From a phage, in sequence record PZ445551.1: a stretch of 64,000 nucleotides of DNA; one strand, 5' to 3'. Under the pieces are notes generated by a model. The model worked only from the letters and a program-made list of their open reading frames with translations. It was not told the origin of the DNA and searched no databases. Shown here piece by piece: positions 7,581 through 22,859 of this stretch (within the stretch, counting starts at the first letter, position 1; every line of letters starts with the position of its first letter). The position numbers were made by a program, and so were the translations under genes.

Positions 7581-7871
7581 TCACATTAAGACACGTTTTG
7601 TGTTGATGGGTGCATTATCAAACATGTTTATCACTTTGTCAAGTTTGTGTATTAACTCGTTCGTAATGTTCCACTCTTTGTATGATCTCCATTGTTTCTT
7701 ATTCTCACCTACCTGGTGTAAAACTTTGATTGGTGCATTCAAACGTACATTGCGTTCTTTGTCCTCTTCAAAAGAGGCTAACCATTTTTCGTTATGTCCA
7801 TGAACAGCAATAATAATGCCAAAACCATCAAAAGTTTCTGTAATATTCTTAGTTGCTAGTGTGATGTTCAT
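7581..7871 (-). CDS. hypothetical protein (96 aa)
   Basis: First gene of leftward block next to divergent promoter region. Confidence 0.55.
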   Translation of the reverse strand: MNITLATKNITETFDGFGIIIAVHGHNEKWLASFEEDKERNVRLNAPIKVLHQVGENKKQWRSYKEWNITNELIHKLDKVINMFDNAPINTKRVLM

Positions 7872-7929
7872 ATCTAACCTCTTTTGTTACGATACACACA
7901 GAGTACCAGAAATTAATTTCAGATCAAGT

Positions 7930-7958
7930 ATTGACATACTGTTTTATTGTGCTAATCT
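7930..7958 (+). promoter_or_regulatory. sigma70-like promoter for rightward block
   Basis: TTGACA, about 17 nt spacer, TAATCT; followed by SD GAGAGGAG and ATG at 7991. Confidence 0.45.
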
Positions 7959-7990
7959 TAATGCATACACAAATGAGAGGAGATAAACGA

Positions 7991-8542
7991 ATGCAAAACA
8001 CCGATCTGACTTGGATAGAAGCCAAAGAAGCAATGTTAAAAGGCAAACGCGTTAAACATAAATACTTTTGCGAAGGAGAATGGTTTGAAATGCGTAACCG
8101 ATCCCTTGTAGATGAAAAAGGGAATGACATGCAACAATGGTTCAAAAATGAAATTTGGCAGGGAACAGGTTGGTCTGTAGTTGAAGAGCAGCCTAGCTCA
8201 AGCGCACTGTTTAGCCCTATTATGTATCGCGTTATCGGTGCTTTAGTTGTTGATCACAGGATTGCAGTGGAAAAAGAATGCTGGGAAGAGGTATCTTTTT
8301 TCAACCTGGCTTCTTATGCAAAAAGCCATATGCACTTGTTTGAAGAAGGGGATGAATTTGTTCTTCGTATGCGCTATGGCAAAGAATTCAGATTATCACT
8401 TGATAATGATGTAGACACTGTTGTAAAATGGTTAGCAGAGCATTACGCTTACGATGCAATTTGTGGTCGCAGCTTCGGCAACGAACGCTGGGACATGATT
8501 TGTGAAAAATATGATTTTGAGCCGGAGTACGGAGTTTTATAA
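7991..8542 (+). CDS. hypothetical protein with DUF2829-like N-terminal domain
   Basis: N-terminus LTWIEAKEAMLKGKRVKHKYF..GEW resembles the DUF2829 pattern as recalled; start refined to ATG at 7991. Confidence 0.5.
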   Translation: MQNTDLTWIEAKEAMLKGKRVKHKYFCEGEWFEMRNRSLVDEKGNDMQQWFKNEIWQGTGWSVVEEQPSSSALFSPIMYRVIGALVVDHRIAVEKECWEEVSFFNLASYAKSHMHLFEEGDEFVLRMRYGKEFRLSLDNDVDTVVKWLAEHYAYDAICGRSFGNERWDMICEKYDFEPEYGVL

Positions 8543-8793
8543 TGTTAAGTATCAAACCTAAAATGATAACAGAAGACGAAGCAGACTTTATTTTCAAATG
8601 TGGACGTGTATGGAGAGAATTCACAAAAGGAAATGAAGTGGTGGTTGTTGTTGAACACAAGATATCTATTCAGGATCTGTTTGGACAATATGTTGATGTT
8701 ATTAAATTAGGTATTGACAAGGGTTTAGTTGAGGTGTTAACATTAGATCAAGTTGAAGCAGAGCACCTCAATAAAGTAGTGGTTGAATTTTAA
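8542..8793 (+). CDS. hypothetical protein (83 aa)
   Basis: ORF with TAATG coupling to upstream gene. Confidence 0.5.
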   Translation: MLSIKPKMITEDEADFIFKCGRVWREFTKGNEVVVVVEHKISIQDLFGQYVDVIKLGIDKGLVEVLTLDQVEAEHLNKVVVEF

Positions 8794-10653: not shown

Positions 10654-11826
10654 ATGACAGCACCAAAATCATGGGAACAATATAAAGAAGAATTAACACC
10701 CCTTGCTAAAAATCACAATATTCAAATCCTGGGTTATGTTGGTGAATGGAAAGGGAACAAGACTAAACTTAAGCTATCTTGCCCTAAACATGGAGAGTGG
10801 AACACCACGAACATTAATGATTTTAAGAAGGGACGTGGTTGTCCTATCTGTTCTGGTAAGAAGCCGTTAACATGGGAAACAGAATTGCCGATCTTGGAAG
10901 AGATAGCACAGAAGAGGGGGTATCAGGTGTTAGGGTACGTGGGAGAATGGAAAGGGAATAAAACAAAACTTGATTTGTTGTGTCATTGTGGTAATAAATG
11001 GGATACTACAAGTATTAACAATTTTAAACGTGGTAGCGGTTGTCCACAATGTAAGAGGGAGAGACAAACAATGTCCGACGATCAACATATTGCAGATTTC
11101 TTTTCTACAGGGGAATTTAAGGAAGGCACTATCTTCACCAATACAGGGAAACGTAACAAGCGTGATGCAGTATGGATGGTTGAGTGTCCTGTTTGCTCCC
11201 ATGATGAATATGTTCAAGCAGGTGTTTGTGATGGTAAATTTTACTCTGCAGGACATAACCTTAAACAAGGGTATATTCCGTGTCGTTGTGGGAACTATCA
11301 GTATACAGAAGACCAGATCACCTATAGGGTAAAAAAGGAAGTAGAAGGGAAAGGGTATGTCTGGGTAGATTGGATTACCAAACCCTCTTCTATAGGTAAG
11401 TTTAAATATCTTTGTCTTGTGCATGGTGAGCAGATAGGGAGTGCTCGTAATTTATTAAGCCTCGGTCAAGGTTGTCCACAGTGTGCTGGTCATAATCAAC
11501 AGCAATTATATATTAATATTGTTAAAGATAATGATATTATAGTTGCCCTTAAGTTTGGTATATCTAAAGATAGCGATAGACGATTAAACGGTCAAAATAG
11601 CCGTAATCTGTTTTTTATGGAGCGTATTTGTTTATATGATTTTAGCACAGTGAAACAATGTAGGGCTGCTGAAAGAGCTATAAAGAAAAAATTAAAAACT
11701 GGTATTTTAACGGCAAGAGAGTTGAAAGATGGTTATACAGAAACAGTAAGTGTTTCTGATTTGGAAAATCTTCAAAAAATTATTACACAATATGGTGGCA
11801 AATTAGTATACAGTAAGGAGATGTAA
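10654..11826 (+). CDS. zinc-ribbon repeat protein with C-terminal T5orf172/GIY-YIG-like domain (putative nuclease)
   Basis: Four repeats of a CxxC/H..GCPxC unit (e.g. GCPICSGKK, GCPQCKRER, GCPQCAGHN); C-terminus LYINIVKDNDIIVALKFGISKDSDRRL resembles T5orf172 as recalled. Confidence 0.55.
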   Translation: MTAPKSWEQYKEELTPLAKNHNIQILGYVGEWKGNKTKLKLSCPKHGEWNTTNINDFKKGRGCPICSGKKPLTWETELPILEEIAQKRGYQVLGYVGEWKGNKTKLDLLCHCGNKWDTTSINNFKRGSGCPQCKRERQTMSDDQHIADFFSTGEFKEGTIFTNTGKRNKRDAVWMVECPVCSHDEYVQAGVCDGKFYSAGHNLKQGYIPCRCGNYQYTEDQITYRVKKEVEGKGYVWVDWITKPSSIGKFKYLCLVHGEQIGSARNLLSLGQGCPQCAGHNQQQLYINIVKDNDIIVALKFGISKDSDRRLNGQNSRNLFFMERICLYDFSTVKQCRAAERAIKKKLKTGILTARELKDGYTETVSVSDLENLQKIITQYGGKLVYSKEM

Positions 11827-13829: not shown

Positions 13830-13887
13830 TTGACAACGTTTTTTAATCTGATAAGATGTATCACATAGGGCGGCAATAGTGCCGCTC
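13830..13887 (+). promoter_or_regulatory. promoter + 5' stem-loop cassette
   Basis: TTGACA, 16 nt, TAAGAT; hairpin GGGCGGCAATAGTGCCGCTC begins a few nt after -10. Confidence 0.6.
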
Positions 13888-13909
13888 ATAACAGAAGAGA
13901 GAAATAATC

Positions 13910-14182
13910 ATGGCATCATATAGCGCATCAATGATCGTAACGGGCATCACTGGTAAACCTATGCGCGGTGGCGGATCTTTCGCTAACATCAATATTGATG
14001 GGCGTTTATCCCTGGACGCAGCGATCACAGTGGCACGGGAAACGTTTAAAAAAGAATGTAATTTCAATAAACAAGATTATCTCGGTTTCGCTATTGAAAA
14101 AACCGCGCGCTTTGTTGATTATAAAAGCCCGAAAATGGTTGATACTACACTAAAAGCGCAAGATGTAGCATTTTTGCTTTAA
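13910..14182 (+). CDS. hypothetical protein (90 aa)
   Basis: ORF after promoter/stem-loop cassette and SD. Confidence 0.55.
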   Translation: MASYSASMIVTGITGKPMRGGGSFANINIDGRLSLDAAITVARETFKKECNFNKQDYLGFAIEKTARFVDYKSPKMVDTTLKAQDVAFLL

Positions 14183-14185
14183 GGC

Positions 14186-14245
14186 TTGACACTGAAAAAT
14201 AATTTGGTAATATATACTACATAGGGCGGGGAAATGGTTTCCCGC
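14186..14245 (+). promoter_or_regulatory. promoter + 5' stem-loop cassette
   Basis: TTGACA, 16 nt, TAATAT; hairpin GGCGGGGAAATGGTTTCCCGCC. Confidence 0.6.
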
Positions 14246-14268
14246 CAAATCAAAGAAAGGGTAACACA

Positions 14269-14631
14269 ATGAGCAAGCAAATCAATACTATCATGTTAAA
14301 CCTGGTATCTTTCCGCGATGACGTGAAAAATCTTTCGCGTGATGCAGTGGATGCACGGATCGAAAGCTATCGCTCACAGATCGCAACATTACCGCTAAAA
14401 CGTGATCAACATGCCGCTAATATGATGCTTAATGCTATGCTTAAAAAGATGATTCAATGTGATCTTACCCTGGCTTATGAATATGCTGGCGATCTCTTTG
14501 TAACATACAATAAGCCCGTTCCAGGTATGAGCACAACCGAAGAATTGCATGCCTTAAATCTGCGACAAGATGCATGGGATAATATGCGCCGCGTTATGGT
14601 ATGGGTAGAAAGCGGCAAAATTTACGCATAA
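14269..14631 (+). CDS. hypothetical protein (120 aa)
   Basis: ORF after promoter/stem-loop cassette. Confidence 0.55.
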   Translation: MSKQINTIMLNLVSFRDDVKNLSRDAVDARIESYRSQIATLPLKRDQHAANMMLNAMLKKMIQCDLTLAYEYAGDLFVTYNKPVPGMSTTEELHALNLRQDAWDNMRRVMVWVESGKIYA

Positions 14632-14635
14632 AGGC

Positions 14636-14689
14636 TTTACATTACACGAAAACCTGATAAGCTATCTTAAAGCGGGAATAGTTCCCGCT
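14636..14689 (+). promoter_or_regulatory. promoter-like element + 5' stem-loop
   Basis: TTTACA with weak -10; hairpin GCGGGAATAGTTCCCGC. Confidence 0.4.
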
Positions 14690-14707
14690 TTCATAGGATA
14701 AAACTTT

Positions 14708-14854
14708 ATGAAACAATATGTAATGAGTATTCACACCAAAAACGGCGCTACTGTTACGACTCCGGCACGGTTTGCACTTGTAAACCGTTGCAAGAGACTA
14801 AAACGAGAGTTAAAAAATAACCGTGCAACGGGCTTTAAACGCTGGGGAGGATAA
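14708..14854 (+). CDS. small basic protein (about 48 aa)
   Basis: Not in ORF track; ATG after stem-loop; approximate coordinates. Confidence 0.4.
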   Translation: MKQYVMSIHTKNGATVTTPARFALVNRCKRLKRELKNNRATGFKRWGG

Positions 14855-14856
14855 TC

Positions 14857-15117
14857 TTGTTTTTTCTAAAAGTTTTTGATAATGTGATCGCTTTTGAACA
14901 TGCTACAACGTTCGACCTAGCGAGATACGCTATCAGGTTTAAAGATAATGTTTATCCCCGTGCTGGAGGCGGTTACACTATTTTTAATCATCGTAACGCT
15001 CAATTAACGGATATAACTAATCCAGATCCTGGAGTGTATCGCATAGGCTGGCTACCGTCAAAAGACGCGGCAAGCATGTTTAAGGTGTGTAAACTACTAA
15101 CAGAAGAGGCAAATTAG
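14857..15117 (+). CDS. hypothetical protein (86 aa), probable TTG start
   Basis: SD GGGGAGGA 7 nt upstream of TTG; no in-frame ATG near start. Confidence 0.45.
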   Translation: MFFLKVFDNVIAFEHATTFDLARYAIRFKDNVYPRAGGGYTIFNHRNAQLTDITNPDPGVYRIGWLPSKDAASMFKVCKLLTEEAN

Positions 15118-15118
15118 C

Positions 15119-15664
15119 ATGGGGCGTGAGTATGTGATCCAGTCCTGGGTAAAGCATGACGCTAATGATCCGCGCATAATACCAGATGACATGATCGATC
15201 ACATGGTAGGGTATAGCGGGGAGCAGATAGGAAATCGAGCGGCAAAGAGCAACGGCAACACAAAGGCGCGATCCGTTCGCCCTGGTTGGCTGGCAAATGG
15301 TAACGCTGACATTGCAAGCGCCGCAGATCCAAGCGATGACGCTAAAAATAATCCCTTATACAGCATTGATCCGGCTTTTAAGGTGTTAGAAGAGTATCCC
15401 GCTAAATTAGCCGCACTAGATAAGGCATACGAAGAAAAGCGCATGGCATGGACGGTATACAACACCGCTAAAATGGTGCTAGATGCAAAATTGATTAAAG
15501 CCCAGGAGAAGATCAATAAACTTGTTGCAGTAGCGCAAGAGGAAGACCAGGAGGAAGAGGAAGAAATCATGCCTACCCTGGAAGAGGAAGAGATCCAGCC
15601 ATACATGCCGACGGAAGAGGAAAAAAGACAAGCCCTAAAAAATTATGAAAATTGCATTGTGTAA
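15119..15664 (+). CDS. hypothetical protein with highly acidic C-terminus (181 aa)
   Basis: C-terminal QEEDQEEEEEIMPTLEEEEIQPYMPTEEE tract. Confidence 0.55.
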   Translation: MGREYVIQSWVKHDANDPRIIPDDMIDHMVGYSGEQIGNRAAKSNGNTKARSVRPGWLANGNADIASAADPSDDAKNNPLYSIDPAFKVLEEYPAKLAALDKAYEEKRMAWTVYNTAKMVLDAKLIKAQEKINKLVAVAQEEDQEEEEEIMPTLEEEEIQPYMPTEEEKRQALKNYENCIV

Positions 15665-15667
15665 GGC

Positions 15668-15725
15668 TTGACATATGCAAACAAGCCCCGTAATATGTAC
15701 CACATAAAGCGGGGCAACGCCCCAT
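15668..15725 (+). promoter_or_regulatory. promoter + 5' stem-loop cassette
   Basis: TTGACA, 17 nt, TAATAT; hairpin GGGGCAACGCCCC. Confidence 0.55.
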
Positions 15726-15745
15726 AAGGTGAAATAAAAAATCAC

Positions 15746-15773
15746 TTGACACCTGAAATCAGTAAGCTATAAT
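15746..15773 (+). promoter_or_regulatory. second tandem sigma70-like promoter
   Basis: TTGACA, 16 nt, TATAAT directly upstream of small ORF at 15811. Confidence 0.5.
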
Positions 15774-15810
15774 GCTTATATAGATTGAAACATTACTAAG
15801 GAATAAAAGC

Positions 15811-15990
15811 ATGGCTATTATTGCAAAAACTGAGATCGTAGGTTTAGATTCTATCATCCTGGCATATGAGGAAGCTATAGAAATGTATGTAGTGACCTAT
15901 GGTGATTATGTGCGTGAATACGAATACATTGATCTTGCTTTCGAATGTTACATTCGCCAGGTCAATAAAGCCTATGATGATTATCGTTAA
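15811..15990 (+). CDS. small acidic protein (about 59 aa)
   Basis: Not in ORF track; ATG after SD AAGGAATAAAAGC. Confidence 0.4.
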   Translation: MAIIAKTEIVGLDSIILAYEEAIEMYVVTYGDYVREYEYIDLAFECYIRQVNKAYDDYR

Positions 15991-16085
15991 AAGTTTTAGT
16001 CTTGTGCTATTGACAACGAACGATAGTACAAGCATAATAACTTTTATCGGGAATACTCCTAACTAATCAAAAGAGATTAAAGACT

Positions 16086-16451
16086 ATGGCTAAAAATATC
16101 AATGTTTCTGCTTATGCTACCCTGGCTAACACTGCTAAAATTGAACTATCCAGCATTGAAGCGGTACATATTAGCGCCCGTCGCTGGTTTCAAAAGTCTT
16201 ATGGTAATACTTATTTCTCTTTGATGGTTGACGTTGAGATCGGCGGTAAACTGATTGAAGTCGTTAACGTTCCGTTTCACTATGGCTACGGGGATCATTT
16301 TGATACCGTTGCCCTAGAAGAGTTTAGCAAGGTTGTCAACCTGGAAGGTAAAGAGTTTTCAAATTATGCCTACCTTTCCCGTTTTTGCCGTGATAATGGG
16401 ATCGCTGTATACAGTCATGCAAGCGATGTTAAACGTAAAAAAGATTTATAA
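16086..16451 (+). CDS. hypothetical protein (121 aa)
   Basis: ORF with SD AAAGAGATTAAAGACT. Confidence 0.55.
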   Translation: MAKNINVSAYATLANTAKIELSSIEAVHISARRWFQKSYGNTYFSLMVDVEIGGKLIEVVNVPFHYGYGDHFDTVALEEFSKVVNLEGKEFSNYAYLSRFCRDNGIAVYSHASDVKRKKDL

Positions 16452-16457
16452 AAAGCA

Positions 16458-16516
16458 TTGACAGCACGAATAAAAAGCATATAATACTTATATCGAGAGC
16501 GGGAATAGTTCCCGCC
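16458..16516 (+). promoter_or_regulatory. promoter + 5' stem-loop cassette
   Basis: TTGACA, 16 nt, TATAAT; hairpin GCGGGAATAGTTCCCGC. Confidence 0.6.
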
Positions 16517-16540
16517 TCACTGAAAAAAGAGATTAACATC

Positions 16541-16780
16541 ATGGCTAAATCTAAAATGTTCTTAGGTCACAAAAACAAAACTCATTGGAATGTAAGCCTT
16601 TGGATCAACAACGATGAAGGTTTTTATAATCTTGCGCGTGAATTTATCGCAGCTAACACCAATAAGAATGACGCAGCGCGTGATATGATGTTATTTCTTG
16701 AAAGTATGGATCAAGATAAAACGCCAGACGGTTACAAGTTCAGTAAAACTGCGATCCGCGCCGCGATGGTTGGAATGTAA
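16541..16780 (+). CDS. hypothetical protein (79 aa)
   Basis: ORF after promoter/stem-loop cassette. Confidence 0.55.
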   Translation: MAKSKMFLGHKNKTHWNVSLWINNDEGFYNLAREFIAANTNKNDAARDMMLFLESMDQDKTPDGYKFSKTAIRAAMVGM

Positions 16781-16873
16781 AGGAGACATAAAAATGAAAC
16801 ATCGTTCGACCTATCTCACAAAACGTTTTAGCTTAGATCATAAATTGGGCTATTACGGAAGAAATAGAAAATA

Positions 16874-16934
16874 ATTTGACACTGTTTAAAATTCTGGTAT
16901 AGTTTATCACATAGGGCGGGAAATGGTTTCCCGC
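16874..16934 (+). promoter_or_regulatory. promoter + 5' stem-loop cassette
   Basis: TTGACA, 16 nt, TATAGT; hairpin GGCGGGAAATGGTTTCCCGCC. Confidence 0.6.
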
Positions 16935-16957
16935 CAAATGAAAGAAAGGTTATCATT

Positions 16958-17185
16958 ATGGCTATCGTTATTGTTCGCGTATCCGGCACGGTTGGAATCT
17001 CCCAGGTAGTAGCAGTTATCACCGAGAAGAAAGGGGATGATCTTCACTCTTCCTTGAATAGCTGGGCGGTCGCTAACTTCGGGCAATGGTCGAGCGTTGA
17101 GTACATCGAATCCTACCAGGTGCCAACGATTAGCCTAACCGATCTAAATGTTGATCGCTTGTTGTGCCTGGATCAATTAAACTAA
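16958..17185 (+). CDS. hypothetical protein (75 aa)
   Basis: ORF after promoter/stem-loop cassette. Confidence 0.55.
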   Translation: MAIVIVRVSGTVGISQVVAVITEKKGDDLHSSLNSWAVANFGQWSSVEYIESYQVPTISLTDLNVDRLLCLDQLN

Positions 17186-17192
17186 AAATAAT

Positions 17193-17251
17193 ATTGACAA
17201 GATAACTAAAATCAGTAAAATGTAATGCATAGGGCGGCAATAGTGCCGCTC
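17193..17251 (+). promoter_or_regulatory. promoter + 5' stem-loop cassette
   Basis: TTGACA, 16 nt, TAAAAT; hairpin GGGCGGCAATAGTGCCGCTC. Confidence 0.6.
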
Positions 17252-17272
17252 CTAGTGAGAGAGATTATCAAG

Positions 17273-17488
17273 ATGGCTAATATCCGCACACTGTTAAAAA
17301 ATGCAAGTCAAGTTTTATTTTCAGATGACGAGTATTTCAACAAAGACATTACAGGCGTGAAAAATTTAAAAGACGTGAAGGATGTTATCGGTATTCGTGG
17401 ATCTTTACGTAAAGGTGACATATACGGTAACAAGGTGCAATATAAACTGTCAAAAGATTATGATTTTACTTTGACATTTATTTCATAA
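17273..17488 (+). CDS. hypothetical protein (71 aa)
   Basis: Start refined to MANIRTLL downstream of stem-loop. Confidence 0.5.
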   Translation: MANIRTLLKNASQVLFSDDEYFNKDITGVKNLKDVKDVIGIRGSLRKGDIYGNKVQYKLSKDYDFTLTFIS

Positions 17489-17493
17489 AACCG

Positions 17494-17555
17494 CTTGCAA
17501 TACTACAAAAATAAAGTAAACTGTATTCATCAAGGCGGTGGAATAGCCCACCGCC
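17494..17555 (+). promoter_or_regulatory. promoter-like element + 5' stem-loop
   Basis: TTGCAA, 17 nt, TAAACT; hairpin GGCGGTGG..CCACCGCC. Confidence 0.45.
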
Positions 17556-17579
17556 TAACAAAGAGAAGAGGAAAACATC

Positions 17580-17750
17580 ATGATCACTTTTGCTACCCGT
17601 GAAGCCGCTCGCAACGTTGCACGTAAAGTTAACGCCGCCAACCTGGGCGCTACGCTTAAAGCCCCGGTAAAAGATGAATCAGGGAAATGGATCTTCCCTG
17701 GTCTGCGTCACGCTGATAAGCTGGGAACATTAACGTTAAAAAATAAATAA
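17580..17750 (+). CDS. small basic protein (about 56 aa)
   Basis: Not in ORF track; ATG after SD GAGAAGAGGAAAAC. Confidence 0.4.
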   Translation: MITFATREAARNVARKVNAANLGATLKAPVKDESGKWIFPGLRHADKLGTLTLKNK

Positions 17751-17756
17751 TATCCG

Positions 17757-17816
17757 CTTGACAGTAGCATGATTTATAAGTAAAGTAACAACAACGGCGG
17801 GAAATGGTTTCCCGCC
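17757..17816 (+). promoter_or_regulatory. promoter + 5' stem-loop cassette
   Basis: TTGACA with TAAAGT-like -10; hairpin GGCGGGAAATGGTTTCCCGCC. Confidence 0.55.
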
Positions 17817-17836
17817 ATCAATAAAGAGATAAGATT

Positions 17837-18196
17837 ATGAAATCAGTAAAAGCAATTAAAACTTACATTTTGTCGGCTATTTCTTTTGATGGTACTACAA
17901 CCGAAAAAGAAAAAATCACCGAACTGATGCGCCGTTTTAACTCTGAATACTGGTATCCCGATAATCAAAAACGTTACAATTATAACGTGATTAAGGCGAT
18001 AGCCTCATGGTTACAAGGTTTACCGTCAGAAATCAATATTGCTTTTGATTATAACGAGATCGATCACTTGTTAATTGAATGGAAGTACATAAAAGAAACA
18101 AGCAAAGAAACAACCGTTACCCGTGAGCGGGAAAATTATTGGTTATATATTGCAAGCATGATCGTAATCCTGGCAAAACAGCATAACGTGGCGTAA
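17837..18196 (+). CDS. hypothetical protein (119 aa)
   Basis: ORF after promoter/stem-loop cassette. Confidence 0.55.
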   Translation: MKSVKAIKTYILSAISFDGTTTEKEKITELMRRFNSEYWYPDNQKRYNYNVIKAIASWLQGLPSEINIAFDYNEIDHLLIEWKYIKETSKETTVTRERENYWLYIASMIVILAKQHNVA

Positions 18197-18211
18197 TTAA
18201 GAGGAAGAAAC

Positions 18212-18349
18212 ATGAACGCATCACAGCAGATCGAAAAATTCAACCGCAGCAAGGCGCGTAAAGATTGGAACGAAGAGATCACCAAAAAAGGCGACAAGCG
18301 GAACAAAACAAAGAGAGATCGCAGCACAAAAAGATACTGGAACGAATAA
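18212..18349 (+). CDS. small Lys/Arg-rich protein (about 45 aa)
   Basis: Not in ORF track; SD AAGAGGAAGAAAC; followed by terminator. Confidence 0.4.
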   Translation: MNASQQIEKFNRSKARKDWNEEITKKGDKRNKTKRDRSTKRYWNE

Positions 18350-18353
18350 CAAA

Positions 18354-18378
18354 AAGGGCGCAATAAGCGCCCTTTTAG
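18354..18378 (+). terminator. rho-independent terminator
   Basis: Hairpin GGGCGCAATAAGCGCCC followed by TTTTAGC. Confidence 0.6.
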
Positions 18379-18466
18379 CTTATATAGAGGCTTGTTACCC
18401 ATAGGCAATGGTAACGCCAGGATAAGCCTATAAACCACGTTAGACAGCTTTACAGGAGCTTTAAAA

Positions 18467-18649
18467 ATGAAATTAGACGAAATAAGCAAGGCACTAGCCC
18501 AGGGGCAAAGGTTATGCGCCCGATATCGTGATCAATATGGCTTCATAACTAGCGGCGTGATCCTGGGGATTGAAGGCAATAAGATTTTTATTGACACGTT
18601 GAAAAACGTTGTATATAGTGACAATATAATCTCAATAAAACATATATGA
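18467..18649 (+). CDS. hypothetical protein (60 aa)
   Basis: ORF with upstream SD ACAGGAGC. Confidence 0.5.
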   Translation: MKLDEISKALAQGQRLCARYRDQYGFITSGVILGIEGNKIFIDTLKNVVYSDNIISIKHI

Positions 18650-18657
18650 GGCAAGAA

Positions 18658-19059
18658 ATGAAAAAATTATTGATCGCTGGTTTAATCTCTTTTGGCATGG
18701 TTGGAACATCTAGCGCGGCGATATCCTCCACAGTAGCAGAATTAAGCGCCGTTGATGCAATGGAAAACGTCATGCTTATTAATAACGCGATCCCCGATGA
18801 AATCATGGAGGATTCACACATGATCGCTTATGGTGCTGTTACACAACTAACGGCAAAAATAGATAAATCTATTGTTAACGGCTTAAATGAAGATGTGCCA
18901 TGTGAAATTATTACCAGTGTGCTGACTACTCAAAATTTTACGCCGTGGTTAAAAAGTATTCAAAAAGTACACAGTACAGCCGCAGATCGTAGCAATGAAA
19001 AACTAGTGTCAGCACTTGCAACGTATACCCTAGCAAAATGCACCGAGATAAAAGATTGA
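18658..19059 (+). CDS. putative secreted protein (signal peptide MKKLLIAGLISFGMVGTSSAA)
   Basis: Start refined to MKKLL with SD GAGG; N-terminal signal-like hydrophobic segment ending in SSA-A. Confidence 0.55.
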   Translation: MKKLLIAGLISFGMVGTSSAAISSTVAELSAVDAMENVMLINNAIPDEIMEDSHMIAYGAVTQLTAKIDKSIVNGLNEDVPCEIITSVLTTQNFTPWLKSIQKVHSTAADRSNEKLVSALATYTLAKCTEIKD

Positions 19060-19106
19060 CAACATAGAAAGCACGTTATAAGATACACACAACAAAGGAG
19101 AACTAC

Positions 19107-19409
19107 ATGAACGGCATAGCTAAAACGTTTTTTCTTTTTTCTGGTGTAAATGATCCATCAATAAAAGTCGATAGTGTAAAAGAAAACAATACTATCACCG
19201 CTAAATTGTTTCAAGATGAAACAAATAACGTGCTAATCATTAATCTTAAAGAAGTAACTAAAGGTTATTATACTATTGCTTACCATGCGATTTATCATGC
19301 TGGTACTAGTGAGGAAGTGCAAACAAGCAACAACGAAAGCGCGGCGCTACCTGGTGATCTGGTGCTGGGCGTTATCAGTTTAATTGTCAATGATTTTTTT
19401 AAGGAGTAA
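19107..19409 (+). CDS. hypothetical protein (100 aa)
   Basis: ORF after TTGACA/TATAAG promoter-like element and SD AAAGGAGAA. Confidence 0.55.
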   Translation: MNGIAKTFFLFSGVNDPSIKVDSVKENNTITAKLFQDETNNVLIINLKEVTKGYYTIAYHAIYHAGTSEEVQTSNNESAALPGDLVLGVISLIVNDFFKE

Positions 19410-19413
19410 AACC

Positions 19414-19509
19414 ATGCCCTATTTACATTTATTTTTCGGTATCTTATTGACAGGATCTTTTTTCTTCTGTATGCTTGTTTCTATTGTAAACCACGTTTTA
19501 AGACATTAA
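19414..19509 (+). CDS. small hydrophobic peptide (about 31 aa)
   Basis: Not in ORF track; SD AAGGAG upstream; weak. Confidence 0.3.
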   Translation: MPYLHLFFGILLTGSFFFCMLVSIVNHVLRH

Positions 19510-19518
19510 GGAAACAGC

Positions 19519-19638
19519 ATGAAAATTATTCCCGTACAATATAGCGTAATAAATCCAGCATACGAGGAAGGAAGGAAAACAAGCATGGCTTTATGTTGTA
19601 TTGCTACTATAGCCATGTTGTTATATATTGTGTTTTAA
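19519..19638 (+). CDS. small hydrophobic peptide (about 39 aa)
   Basis: Not in ORF track; SD AAGGAAACAGC; weak. Confidence 0.3.
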   Translation: MKIIPVQYSVINPAYEEGRKTSMALCCIATIAMLLYIVF

Positions 19639-19738
19639 TAGGTTTTATAGTTGTACGCTTTAAGGGCTTGACAATTTTTTGTTATGCTTTAAACTATATC
19701 TTGAAAACGGCAAAGGCCGCAAACAAAAGGGTAAAATT

Positions 19739-20062
19739 ATGAAATCTGTGATCGGTGTTTATTTGGATAACTCTGATTTTTTCTATCATCGCGCTCGTTT
19801 CCTTGATGCGATTGAAATGATAGAATCAGGCTTTAAAGAGTATCGCCTTGCACATGATGACCTGGAAGCATTACAGGGCAATAGTGTTTTTACATTGCAA
19901 GCTAAAGCACTATGCAAAAGCCGGATCGACATTGCGAGCAAAAAGATAGAACGCGGCATGTCCTGGTTGCGCACCGCAGAAATCAACATGGGGCAATGGT
20001 ACGGCGAAAACTTAGAAAATAAACATACTTTTGTCAATGTAGAAAATATTGAAGATTATTGA
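19739..20062 (+). CDS. hypothetical protein (107 aa)
   Basis: Start refined to MKSVIGVY downstream of TTGACA promoter-like element. Confidence 0.5.
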   Translation: MKSVIGVYLDNSDFFYHRARFLDAIEMIESGFKEYRLAHDDLEALQGNSVFTLQAKALCKSRIDIASKKIERGMSWLRTAEINMGQWYGENLENKHTFVNVENIEDY

Positions 20063-20124
20063 TTGACAGCACACCTAACGGGTAGTATATTGTATCTCAT
20101 AGAGCGGGGAAATGGTTTCCCCGC
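20063..20124 (+). promoter_or_regulatory. promoter + 5' stem-loop cassette
   Basis: TTGACA with TAGTAT-like -10; hairpin GCGGGGAAATGGTTTCCCCGC. Confidence 0.55.
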
Positions 20125-20144
20125 CTTAAAAGAAGAGATAAGCT

Positions 20145-20429
20145 ATGAAGATCACAAAAGCACTTTCCAACTATGCAGCACGTCGCGGATTATGTTTAAC
20201 CGTTGAAAATTTAGGGAAAGAAGATTTTTTGTGCTTTTGGGAGCTTGAGAATGATAATGAGTGGATCTTCTCTTATTCTATCTGCGAAGATCAAAACGGT
20301 TGTTTATTAACCTGGCGCGGTAATATCTATTTACCGGAAGAAATCAAAGAAGAATTACCAGGCACGATCATGACTGAGAAACAGCTTAAGGAAGTGATCA
20401 ATTTTGTAGGGCAAAACATTAAAAAATAA
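20145..20429 (+). CDS. hypothetical protein (94 aa)
   Basis: ORF after promoter/stem-loop cassette. Confidence 0.55.
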   Translation: MKITKALSNYAARRGLCLTVENLGKEDFLCFWELENDNEWIFSYSICEDQNGCLLTWRGNIYLPEEIKEELPGTIMTEKQLKEVINFVGQNIKK

Positions 20430-20430
20430 T

Positions 20431-20488
20431 TTGACACTAGGCAAACAACGTAGTAAAGTTTATCACATAGGGCGGCAATAGTGCCGCT
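20431..20488 (+). promoter_or_regulatory. promoter + 5' stem-loop cassette
   Basis: TTGACA with TAAAGT-like -10; hairpin GGGCGGCAATAGTGCCGCTC. Confidence 0.55.
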
Positions 20489-20510
20489 CATAACAGAAGA
20501 GAAACAAATC

Positions 20511-20681
20511 ATGATCCCGACTATGTTTTATGTATCGCGCAAAGGTCACAATATTTTTTGGTCTGAAGATTTAAATGAAGCTATGACGTTTGCCCGTGAT
20601 CGTGTCGCTATCGGTGGCGTTAACATCACTGTAACCGATGAAAACGGCATTGAATACTATAACGGCGACGATGAAGAGTAA
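20511..20681 (+). CDS. hypothetical protein (56 aa)
   Basis: Start refined to MIPTMFYV downstream of stem-loop. Confidence 0.5.
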   Translation: MIPTMFYVSRKGHNIFWSEDLNEAMTFARDRVAIGGVNITVTDENGIEYYNGDDEE

Positions 20682-20725
20682 TCAACAAGGCGGGATTAAT
20701 CCCGCCTGTATTAAAGGGTAATATA

Positions 20726-20863
20726 ATGAAAACTTTCAACGCAACAGCCTCGACAATTGGTTATATTATTACAGTGCAAGCCGTTGACCTGGTAGCGGCA
20801 GCAAACAAGATTAAAAAGATGATCCCAACAGGCAGCGAATTTTCCGTTTGGGAAGTAAAATAA
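20726..20863 (+). CDS. small protein (about 45 aa)
   Basis: Not in ORF track; preceded by palindrome GGCGGGATTAATCCCGCC and SD-like AAGGGTAA. Confidence 0.4.
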   Translation: MKTFNATASTIGYIITVQAVDLVAAANKIKKMIPTGSEFSVWEVK

Positions 20864-20865
20864 AT

Positions 20866-20924
20866 CTTGACAATAGTTTATTACTTGATAGAATGTATTT
20901 CGTAGGGCGGCAATAGTGCCGCTC
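20866..20924 (+). promoter_or_regulatory. promoter + 5' stem-loop cassette
   Basis: TTGACA, 16 nt, TAGAAT; hairpin GGGCGGCAATAGTGCCGCTC. Confidence 0.6.
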
Positions 20925-20945
20925 ACAACTAAAAGAGAAATCATC

Positions 20946-21140
20946 ATGGCGCTTAAAAAATTAACAAGCAATACTCGTTGGGATGAAATCGACGGGGAAG
21001 TATACATTTTCGCCCGTAAACCAGGTGATCAAAAATGGTCAAAGGCTTTTACTTGCCACCCTGCAACAATAGATCTAATAAAAAGTAAAGGTTTACGTGA
21101 AGCAGTAGCGAGAAGTTTACTGATCCCTTATAAAAAATAG
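20946..21140 (+). CDS. hypothetical protein (64 aa)
   Basis: Start refined to MALKKLTS downstream of stem-loop. Confidence 0.5.
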   Translation: MALKKLTSNTRWDEIDGEVYIFARKPGDQKWSKAFTCHPATIDLIKSKGLREAVARSLLIPYKK

Positions 21141-21141
21141 T

Positions 21142-21203
21142 TTGACAATATGCTGTTATCTGGTAAAGTGTACGACATAGGGCGGGGCAATAAGGCAACG
21201 CCC
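21142..21203 (+). promoter_or_regulatory. promoter + variant 5' stem-loop
   Basis: TTGACA with TAAAGT-like -10; GC-rich imperfect hairpin GGGCGGGGCAATAAGGCAACGCCC. Confidence 0.45.
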
Positions 21204-21221
21204 ATTAATGAGGGTAGAATC

Positions 21222-21326
21222 ATGTTAGAGAAAATTTTCACGGTTGTAGTAGTTGGCCTGGCGTTATCGGTTGGATTGGTTGCAACTATGGCTAACATGA
21301 TCCTATCTTCCCACGGTATTGGATAA
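21222..21326 (+). CDS. small hydrophobic peptide (about 34 aa)
   Basis: Not in ORF track; single predicted TM helix. Confidence 0.35.
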   Translation: MLEKIFTVVVVGLALSVGLVATMANMILSSHGIG

Positions 21327-21336
21327 GGTGAATCAA

Positions 21337-21552
21337 ATGATCACGAATAAGACAGGTAAAACAGAATTTTTACGCGGCTTGCAAATAGGTAAACCTGAGA
21401 TCTGGCATTGCACTAAATCCGCGCATAATGAAATGAAAGATTTTACCGCTACTTTACAACGTGTTAAAATATCTATCACGCAGAAAAAAGCCTTGTTAGT
21501 AGTAGAAAACGAGATACCGCAAACCATTATTATTGTCGAGCGTACAGCATGA
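21337..21552 (+). CDS. hypothetical protein (71 aa)
   Basis: Start refined to MITNKTGK. Confidence 0.5.
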   Translation: MITNKTGKTEFLRGLQIGKPEIWHCTKSAHNEMKDFTATLQRVKISITQKKALLVVENEIPQTIIIVERTA

Positions 21553-21935
21553 AAACTGAAATCATTATTGAAATCATCAACGGTTATAAAGAAGCCTTTA
21601 TTTTTGCTGAATCAGCCAGGGATCATGAAGGCTATTTTATTGATAACTTAGACGATTATGATTTTTCAGATCAAGCCCATCAGCGGATCATTCATGACGT
21701 AGCGGCTTATTGTGATGCCAATGATGCTGCTATCTCTGAGGCAATGAGCGACGGCGCTACAGCAAACCAGATCGGGAATGATTTACATTTTACCCGTAAC
21801 GGTCACGGCGTAGGCTTTTGGGATCGCCCTGAAATATACACTACTAACACCGCCAACCGCCTAACAAATGCAGCTAAATTAATGCCATCGGTGCATGCTT
21901 ACATTGGTGAAGATAATTTGATTTATATTGAATAA
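21549..21935 (+). CDS. hypothetical protein (128 aa)
   Basis: ATGA overlap with upstream gene. Confidence 0.55.
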   Translation: MKTEIIIEIINGYKEAFIFAESARDHEGYFIDNLDDYDFSDQAHQRIIHDVAAYCDANDAAISEAMSDGATANQIGNDLHFTRNGHGVGFWDRPEIYTTNTANRLTNAAKLMPSVHAYIGEDNLIYIE

Positions 21936-21941
21936 AAAGTA

Positions 21942-22000
21942 TTGACACCGATCCCCCATATGGTATTATTTACCACGTAGGCGGGAAATGGTTTCCCGCC
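21942..22000 (+). promoter_or_regulatory. promoter + 5' stem-loop cassette
   Basis: TTGACA with TATTAT-like -10; hairpin GGCGGGAAATGGTTTCCCGCC. Confidence 0.55.
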
Positions 22001-22023
22001 AGGTAATCAAAAAGGTAAATACT

Positions 22024-22413
22024 ATGCGCAACCTGGTTTCTGTTTCTAACGTTGAAAAATTTCAATCCTTGCAGGGTATCGTTAACAACGTAGCGCCTTT
22101 TTTAGTCAATGGCTTGATTGCAAAGATGAAAAATAAACATCATGCGGCATGGTCTGCTTACTGCTTTGATAATGATGAAAAAGCGGCTGAAATGATGTTA
22201 GATATGCTGTTAAATAGTGTAGAAACATCTTTACCGGAAAACATCGCAGAAGAGATCACCTATCGTTATAATATGGCGATCACTTACCAGGAGGTTGCGC
22301 AATTTAATATGATGGATGATGACGAACAACAGGATCAGGAAATGTTTTGGGAGTATGCAGATCGTCAATCGGCTTTTGATGAAAAGTTAGCGATGTATTA
22401 TAACGAATATTAA
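22024..22413 (+). CDS. hypothetical protein (129 aa)
   Basis: Start refined to MRNLVSVS downstream of stem-loop. Confidence 0.55.
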   Translation: MRNLVSVSNVEKFQSLQGIVNNVAPFLVNGLIAKMKNKHHAAWSAYCFDNDEKAAEMMLDMLLNSVETSLPENIAEEITYRYNMAITYQEVAQFNMMDDDEQQDQEMFWEYADRQSAFDEKLAMYYNEY

Positions 22414-22426
22414 TACACGGTAAAAG

Positions 22427-22455
22427 AAAGGGGCGCACTAAGCGCCCTTTTTTGT
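22427..22455 (+). terminator. rho-independent terminator
   Basis: Hairpin AGGGGCGCACTAAGCGCCCT followed by TTTTTTG. Confidence 0.65.
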
Positions 22456-22799
22456 ATTCTTTTTTCACGATGGAAGTAACACGTAAAGAATAAACGTAAA
22501 AGGTGGTGTAAAACAGCCTAAAACCGATTATAACCGCTTAAACAAGGTAGTAATGACTAATCACCTTGCCAGGATGAAAAAGCTGTTATAAAGCTATTTA
22601 GAGCGTTTAAAGCACATAGGAAATAATTTGCTTTTTATCTTGCCTTTTATCCTGCTTTTGATTATTATTATGGAACGGGCGGCACCTGGGGACAGGGGAA
22701 GGTAATCACCGGAAGATCCCGCTATATATTGATAGCTAATATCTATTAAACAACAAAACATCAAAGGAATAAACTATCAAATCTTTACAATTCTACCTA

Positions 22800-22859
22800 T
22801 TGACACAGGATCACCCTTATAATAAGATGTATCCAGTAGGGCGGGAAATGGTTTCCCGC
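22800..22859 (+). promoter_or_regulatory. promoter + 5' stem-loop cassette
   Basis: TTGACA, 17 nt, TAAGAT; hairpin GGGCGGGAAATGGTTTCCCGC. Confidence 0.6.

Follow-up and report, generated by a model that had tools for sequence, protein, structure and literature searches.

We analysed the gene at positions 7991–8542 (plus strand) of a stretch of phage DNA of 64,000 nucleotides (nt; PZ445551.1), which is called the window here and to which all counts for the window refer. The gene encodes a protein of 183 amino acids (aa) that opens MQNTDLTWIEAKEAMLKGKRVKHKYFCEGEWFEM. Its N-terminal module, the N-module, is very probably remotely homologous to the Tad2 fold. The evidence supports its placement as a divergent, minimal and insertion-less branch of the Tad2/DUF2829 superfamily, for which formal Pfam membership fails. 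By analogy with Tad2, a sponge role of the gene product is a plausible candidate.

Homology of the N-terminal module to Tad2

The initial annotation had described the start of the protein as resembling DUF2829, the fold of the Tad2-type sponges. This resemblance was found to lie above chance, as judged from alignment comparisons with clean controls, from cross-matches between PHROG families and from structural matches to Tad2. Direct searches of Pfam, NCBIfam and PDB sequences with the window protein gave nothing useful, and PF11195 (gathering score 25 bits) did not match it even at E ≤ 10. Only the cluster of the protein itself came up in a word-indexed search for homologues, and with the family alignment as query seven proteins were found, two of them new. 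HMMER, run exhaustively against 1.84 billion representative proteins, detected only 44 related clusters; two high-scoring long proteins from the representative search (P0003 and P0021) were excluded as repeat artefacts. A family alignment of 31 N-module sequences was built from the 44 clusters. No paper describing this mini-family was found in the literature.

Six of the 31 sequences gave sub-threshold matches to PF11195 (best E 0.0028), more than to any other Pfam family. When the family profile was run against the PDB, its best match was SptTad2 (E 0.052), aligned over the opening helix with G-K-x-V and over the closing W...(D/G)-W. The family alignment was then compared by hhalign with an alignment of eight genuine PF11195 phage proteins, each of which matches PF11195 at 1e-27 or better. 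The two aligned with a probability of 90.3% and an E-value of 1.5e-6 over helix α1, β1 and β2, a match that spans 35 columns only. The controls, consisting of an unrelated alignment, the reversed PF11195 alignment and 20 column-shuffled versions of it, reached a probability of at most 1.1%. The window protein also matched the DUF2829-type family phrog_2709 at 9.5e-4 (2e-15 for a genuine DUF2829 protein), and reciprocally a genuine DUF2829 protein matched phrog_3474, the family of the N-module, at 3.6e-5. In the search of profiles for DUF2829 the proposed relationship stood in the hhalign comparison and in the PHROG cross-matches, and fell in the direct match to PF11195.

The N-module was modelled with AlphaFold2 from the family alignment only, free of templates, with a predicted local distance difference test (pLDDT) score of 86.4. 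The predicted order of elements is helix, three strands, short helix and strand, with the first helix at residues 8–16, strands at 20–23, 32–35 and 38–41, the short helix at 55–58 and the last strand at 61–64. The model contains all parts of the Tad2 core fold, namely helix α1, the antiparallel β-sheet, the short C-terminal helix and the last strand. The top matches of a Foldseek search against the PDB were all Tad2 chains, with query-normalised template modelling (TM) scores of 0.56–0.66 and E-values of only about 0.7, while the scores of non-Tad2 structures were about 0.2. The comparison of a predicted structure with Tad2, which the initial annotation had put forward as a check, agreed with its assignment.

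Comparison with Tad2 and the putative ligand pocket

We compared the N-module with the Tad2 proteins SPO1 gp34.65, HgmTad2, SptTad2 and ModTad2. An N-terminal helix, an antiparallel sheet, a short C-terminal helix and a final strand ending (D/G)-W-x-(V/I) are common to both, as is the opening motif x-F/W-x-E/Q-A-x-x-A-x-x-x-G-K-x-V. Aromatic residues are found in both at the positions of W25 and W73 (SPO1 numbering). Both are also small, phage-encoded and, for the window family as far as can be judged, early-expressed, and both occur alone or fused. The differences are equally clear. The N-module has about 62 aa and no β2–β3 insertion, whereas Tad2 has 89–104 aa. The GWNG of Tad2 is replaced by (Y/H)-F-(T/C/S)-(D/S)-(D/G)-E and its S-Q-T-D by (R/K)-G-E-x, and unlike Tad2 the N-module family is acidic overall and stays under the Pfam threshold.

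The main contacts of SPO1 Tad2 to glycocyclic ADP-ribose (gcADPR) are made by W25, N26, W73 and D79, so that Trp and Asp contacts are used, not basic residues (10.1101/2023.05.01.538930). We placed the N-module in register with these residues by the alignment of the family profile to SptTad2 together with the hhalign comparison, and conservation was counted over the 31 sequences. W25 corresponds to F26, which is present in every sequence, and W73 to W50, where W or F is found in 30 of 31. The equivalent of N26 is position 27, occupied by T, C or S in 24 of 31 and by M, I, G, F or L in the rest, but never by Asn. D79 falls at position 55, which is variable and is I55 in the window protein.

Besides F26 and W50, the most conserved columns of the family are E30 (30/31), E42 (29/31) and W61 (29/31). 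Taken together the best-conserved residues (F26, E30, E42, W50, E54, W56, Q57, G60 and W61) are largely acidic or aromatic, and their columns map to the pocket elements and loops of Tad2; G44 is a further well-conserved residue of the pocket elements. Because these residues lie on the pocket loops, a functional site with different chemistry is likely to be present at the position of the Tad2 pocket.

Two modules in one protein

The initial annotation overlooked that the Tad2-like segment is fused with a second, unrelated domain. In a PHROG search the protein was split in two, with residues 1–69 matching phrog_3474 (1.6e-25) and phrog_22208, and residues 73–182 matching phrog_11295 (1.5e-49). 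All three are families of unknown function. The N-module (phrog_3474), a minimal domain of the Tad2/DUF2829 fold, takes up residues 1–64 (7991–8182, plus strand), and the second module, the C-module (phrog_11295), residues 73–183 (8207–8539, plus strand). Between them lies a linker of residues 65–72 (EEQPSSSA; 8183–8206, plus strand), a non-conserved fusion junction in which the pLDDT drops to 49–73.

Searched by tblastn, the N-module was found in 510 of 50,697 phage records (about 1%), mostly as a stand-alone gene of about 60–70 aa, a form carried by hundreds of virulent phages of enterobacteria. Its carriers include T4-like phages of Klebsiella, Citrobacter and Salmonella, Felix O1-like, rV5-like and T5-like phages (there in the terminal repeat) and Loessnervirus. 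In nine other phage lineages the stand-alone form sits among small early genes, for instance between nrdH and gene 55 in the T4-like ones and between the genes for polymerase and ligase in the Felix O1-like ones. The C-module was found in 140 phage records and stands alone in Phapecoctavirus. In ESCO5, a phage of the sister genus Phapecoctavirus, the two modules are separate genes on opposite arms, and downstream of the C-module gene come the 83-aa gene and the AAA ATPase block that also stand behind the fused gene in the window. In addition, L73-F-S-P of the fused protein aligns with the M-F-S-P start of the stand-alone C-module proteins. Based on these two sequence observations, the separate modules in ESCO5 and the matching start, we concluded that the phi92-type gene is a fusion of two independent modules, made by genome rearrangement in the phi92 lineage.

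Other arrangements of the N-module were also seen. In Phapecoctavirus and relatives (ESCO5_00026, L002 2992–3435; P0004, P0012, P0014 and P0044) the mini-Tad2 carries a conserved and very basic Lys-rich C-terminal tail (...YKGKGHNKLKKGKKK), not a chaperone-like domain. Protein P0017 contains two N-modules in tandem.

The C-terminal module

For the C-module no Pfam or PDB sequence match was obtained, and in Pfam and NCBIfam nothing rose above noise. In structural comparison it has the α-β5-α-α fold of type III secretion chaperones and YbjN-like proteins, with a sequence identity of 7–21% across the matches (AvrPphF ORF1, ExsC, SpcS, AmyR and DR_1245). It was not placed in any curated chaperone or YbjN sequence family. 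In contrast to those proteins, to which it has no match at the family level, it has invariant residues of its own; an alignment of nine C-module sequences contains seven (K111, S112, H113, R128, Y129, G159 and W167). The context differs as well, since the C-module belongs to a phage early gene and type III chaperones to a secretion system. We concluded that the C-module is probably a dimerising protein-binding module. The invariant polar cluster (K-S-H, R-Y and G) resembles a ligand-binding or catalytic site more than a plain protein-binding surface.

The C-module did not fall into any of the known sponge families Acb4 (PF13876), Sequestin (PF21825), Tad1, Acb2 or Lockin. For either module Sequestin, Lockin and TadIV-1 were rejected on the published descriptions of their folds; according to these, Sequestin is all-helical and Lockin forms a β-rich hexamer.

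Gene start, promoter and early expression

The region of the window is 100% identical to the reverse strand of the phi92-like Escherichia phage VivaForever (PP925843.1) and 95–98% identical to phi92, PaulScherrer (Bas60) and other Justusliebigvirus phages. The open reading frame proved to be as real as had been claimed. It begins with ATG at 7991 and ends with TAA at 8542 (stop included), is the orthologue of Phi92_gp217 and bas60_0105, and is preceded by a strong ribosome-binding site read directly from the sequence (GAGAGGAG, 7975–7982, plus strand), 8 nt 5' of the ATG. The same start codon is annotated in VivaForever, whose DNA is identical, and in Bas60, whose bas60_0105 protein is intact and 97% identical to the window protein. 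In VivaForever, phi92 and Bas60 the gene carries only a "hypothetical" annotation.

In agreement with the initial annotation, the gene is the first credible reading frame of the rightward block and lies behind a divergent region with a promoter-like site. The divergent intergenic region has 119 bp and contains a putative sigma-70-like promoter at 7931–7958 (plus strand), with the −35 element TTGACA at 7931–7936, a 16-nt spacer and an extended −10 element TGcTAATCT at 7950–7958. The site lies 33 nt 5' of the ATG. Its −35 hexamer was scored as perfect in a dedicated scan, and a generic promoter scanner missed the site, which scored just under its threshold. The window contains 34 copies of the pattern TTGACA-N16–18-TAnnnT where 3.9 would be expected, which makes it the phage's usual host-type promoter. 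In T5-like phages homologues of the N-module are located within the terminal repeat, and in phage MP1 directly behind an annotated promoter. From these sequence features it is fair to infer that the gene is expressed early.

About 18 perfect TTGACA promoters are packed into the region 13830–22830 (plus strand) in front of small reading frames (13830, 14186, 16876, 20063, 20431, 21942, 22800 and others). Most of them have a conserved GC hairpin (CATAGGGCGGGAAATGGTTTCCCGCC or GGGCGGCAATAGTGCCGCTC) a few bases past the −10 element. They look like repeated cassettes of promoter and stem-loop and resemble the promoter-early stem-loop cassettes known from T4-type phages.

Neighbouring genes

In PP925843 a coding sequence of 40 aa is annotated at 7864–7986 (plus strand), overlapping both the promoter region and the start of the divergent gene. 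Bas60 has no such annotation, and the call is probably spurious. The divergent upstream neighbours are a DUF7325 gene and a Phage_tudor gene. The latter (PF24144; 7281–7568, minus strand) lies near the mini-Tad2 gene in the window, and in the unrelated T4-like Klebsiella phage KP179 a Phage_tudor gene (L003 2677–2919) stands directly 3' of a stand-alone mini-Tad2 gene. The pairing recurs only in KP179 and was not found in eight other lineages.

On the downstream side an 83-aa gene of phrog_4868 (8542–8793, plus strand) follows, the ATG of which overlaps the stop codon of the fused gene (TAATG). Synteny between it and the C-module holds across Stephanstirmvirinae. The two were considered as a strict pair and this was rejected, the linkage being synteny of the subfamily. 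After it come two small membrane proteins, an AAA ATPase and a CapR/T5orf172 endonuclease. This last protein of 390 aa (10654–11826, plus strand) is annotated as an endonuclease and contains three CapR-homology repeats and a T5orf172 domain; it is probably a homing-type nuclease inserted 3' of the AAA ATPase gene.

A six-frame search of the window found no second Tad2-like gene. Ksap2, the trigger by which Bas60 is recognised by KpAvs2, was considered as well and is not the gene described here but Bas60_220. Four records of 146 kb labelled as Campylobacter jejuni phages (MG065639, MG065645, MG065656 and MG065689; "Campylobacter phage" A150, A145, C3 and A110a) are 98.4% identical to the region. 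As this is identity to the region of an E. coli phi92-like phage, it suggests that the four records are mislabelled or contaminant.

Discussion

Tad2 proteins sequester 3'-cyclic ADP-ribose (3'cADPR) and 2'cADPR and, depending on the homologue, also His-ADPR, cCMP/cUMP, N7-cADPR and cyclic dinucleotides. The gcADPR sponge is a homotetramer with its pockets between protomers. All characterised DUF2829 proteins are anti-defence proteins, and ligand specificity is plastic in the family. For the protein in the window we tentatively favour the role of an early counter-defence ligand binder with non-canonical specificity, a reading that we place somewhat short of probable. By analogy with Tad2, the N-module would assemble via helix α1 into a homo-oligomer. 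The pocket elements (β1–β2 loop, β3–β4 turn, β4–helix loop and short helix) would then serve to capture a small host molecule produced during infection and keep it sequestered, and this sequestration would be the counter-defence. The ligand would probably not be 3'cADPR, 2'cADPR or 3'3'-cyclic GMP-AMP (3'3'-cGAMP), because the Asn26/Asp79 pair and the insertion are lost and the pocket is aromatic and acidic. Another signal or metabolite is more likely.

Several observations weigh against such a ligand binder. Two of the four main gcADPR contacts are kept, both of them aromatic, and the equivalents of Asn26 and Asp79 are lost; among true Tad2 proteins the gcADPR site is predicted to be non-functional in only about 1%. 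The net charge in the N-module family ranges from +1 to −9 and is negative in 28 of the 31 sequences, and the β1–β2 loop is acidic, whereas a positive charge is found in nearly all known sponge pockets. The β2–β3 insertion with helix α2 is absent, and the model predicts a tight hairpin between strands 32–35 and 38–41 in its place. In Tad2 this insertion (residues 36–59 in the 89-aa SPO1 Tad2 and 32–72 in HgmTad2) makes the V/X-shaped dimer interface, and in homologues with a long insert it provides the pocket for cyclic dinucleotides. The missing match to PF11195 counts on the same side. The genomic context gives no help either: the extra regions of P0043, P0042, P0015, P0020, P0017 and the proteins with Lys-rich tails match no Pfam family, and no known anti-defence gene was found beside the stand-alone N-module in nine other phage lineages. 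Finally, Bas60 (PaulScherrer) was used in two studies as a phage that is blocked by the type I 3'3'-cGAMP cyclic-oligonucleotide-based antiphage signalling system (CBASS) of E. albertii. This blocking, despite the 97% identical orthologue in Bas60, argues against sequestration of 3'3'-cGAMP.

It is common for sponge domains to be fused with further sponge modules, as in Tad2-Acb4 and Tad2/Acb4-Sequestin (PMC12265669). Like these fusions, the protein in the window joins a Tad2-type module and a second small phage module of independent occurrence in one polypeptide. The partner in the published fusions is itself a sponge, whereas here it has a chaperone/YbjN-like fold without a Pfam match.

Much of the same evidence could be explained if the Tad2 fold has been re-purposed, so that the N-module, alone or with the C-module, binds a host or phage protein or serves another role in host takeover, and no immune signal is sequestered. 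The acidic and aromatic character of the family and of its invariant pocket residues is ill suited to anionic nucleotides, the dimer-forming insertion is lost, the C-module has the fold of a protein-binding chaperone, and the fusions and neighbourhoods that were checked contain no genomic link to known sponges. A precedent for another mechanism on the same fold is AcrIIA7, a DUF2829 protein which binds and sequesters trans-activating CRISPR RNA (tracrRNA) in a basic groove (PMC13133391). It has a head and an extended domain around its basic RNA groove, whereas the N-module is minimal and acidic. On the other hand, conservation in the N-module is focused on the loops of the Tad2 ligand pocket, Tad2 itself contacts gcADPR by Trp and Asp instead of basic residues, and the characterised relatives all bind nucleotides or RNA. 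We regard re-purposing as a serious possibility, but one that we lean towards doubting.

A canonical anti-Thoeris Tad2, that is a tetrameric sponge for 3'cADPR or 2'cADPR, would fit the common core fold, the aromatic residues W25 and W73 kept as F26 and W50, and the early expression. It is difficult to reconcile with the non-conserved equivalents of N26 and D79, the exchange of S-Q-T-D for (R/K)-G-E-x, the absent helix α2 insertion and the failure of PF11195, the more so as loss of the gcADPR site is so rare among Tad2 proteins. We therefore consider a canonical sponge for 3'cADPR, and equally one for cGAMP, unlikely. That the N-module is unrelated to DUF2829 and the likeness a product of convergence or an artefact of modelling is very unlikely; the missing Pfam match, the weak Foldseek E-values and the short hhalign match would agree with it, but the near-zero hhalign controls, the reciprocal PHROG cross-matches and SptTad2 as the top PDB profile match speak against it. 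Least credible of all is an RNA binder of the AcrIIA7 kind that blocks CRISPR by sequestering tracrRNA or other RNA, since a basic groove is unlikely in so acidic a family and, to our knowledge, E. coli and relatives carry type I CRISPR and not Cas9 with tracrRNA.

The early counter-defence ligand binder that we tentatively favour can be extended to a wider proposal, which at present we would call rather improbable. In it phrog_3474 would be a minimal branch of the Tad2 superfamily that has gone unrecognised and that sequesters a signal outside the known set of Tad2; its aromatic and acidic pocket would point to a cationic or sugar-rich moiety in the ligand. Many virulent phages that infect Escherichia, Klebsiella and Salmonella would deploy it at the very start of infection, T5-like phages among them from their terminal-repeat region. 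In phi92-like phages its fusion partner with the chaperone-like fold would be a second new module of counter-defence.

Tad2-type sponges are now recognised via PF11195, and the phrog_3474 family escapes it, although it is present in about 1% of sequenced phage genomes. Many of its carriers are tractable coliphages, including the BASEL phage Bas60. The fusion itself shows that two stand-alone genes can be turned by genome rearrangement into one early protein with two domains. If the N-module binds no signal, it would be a clear case of reuse of the Tad2 fold, as AcrIIA7 hints. If it does bind one, the sponge repertoire of enterobacterial phages would be wider, and the altered pocket could indicate a signal or pathway new to Tad2.
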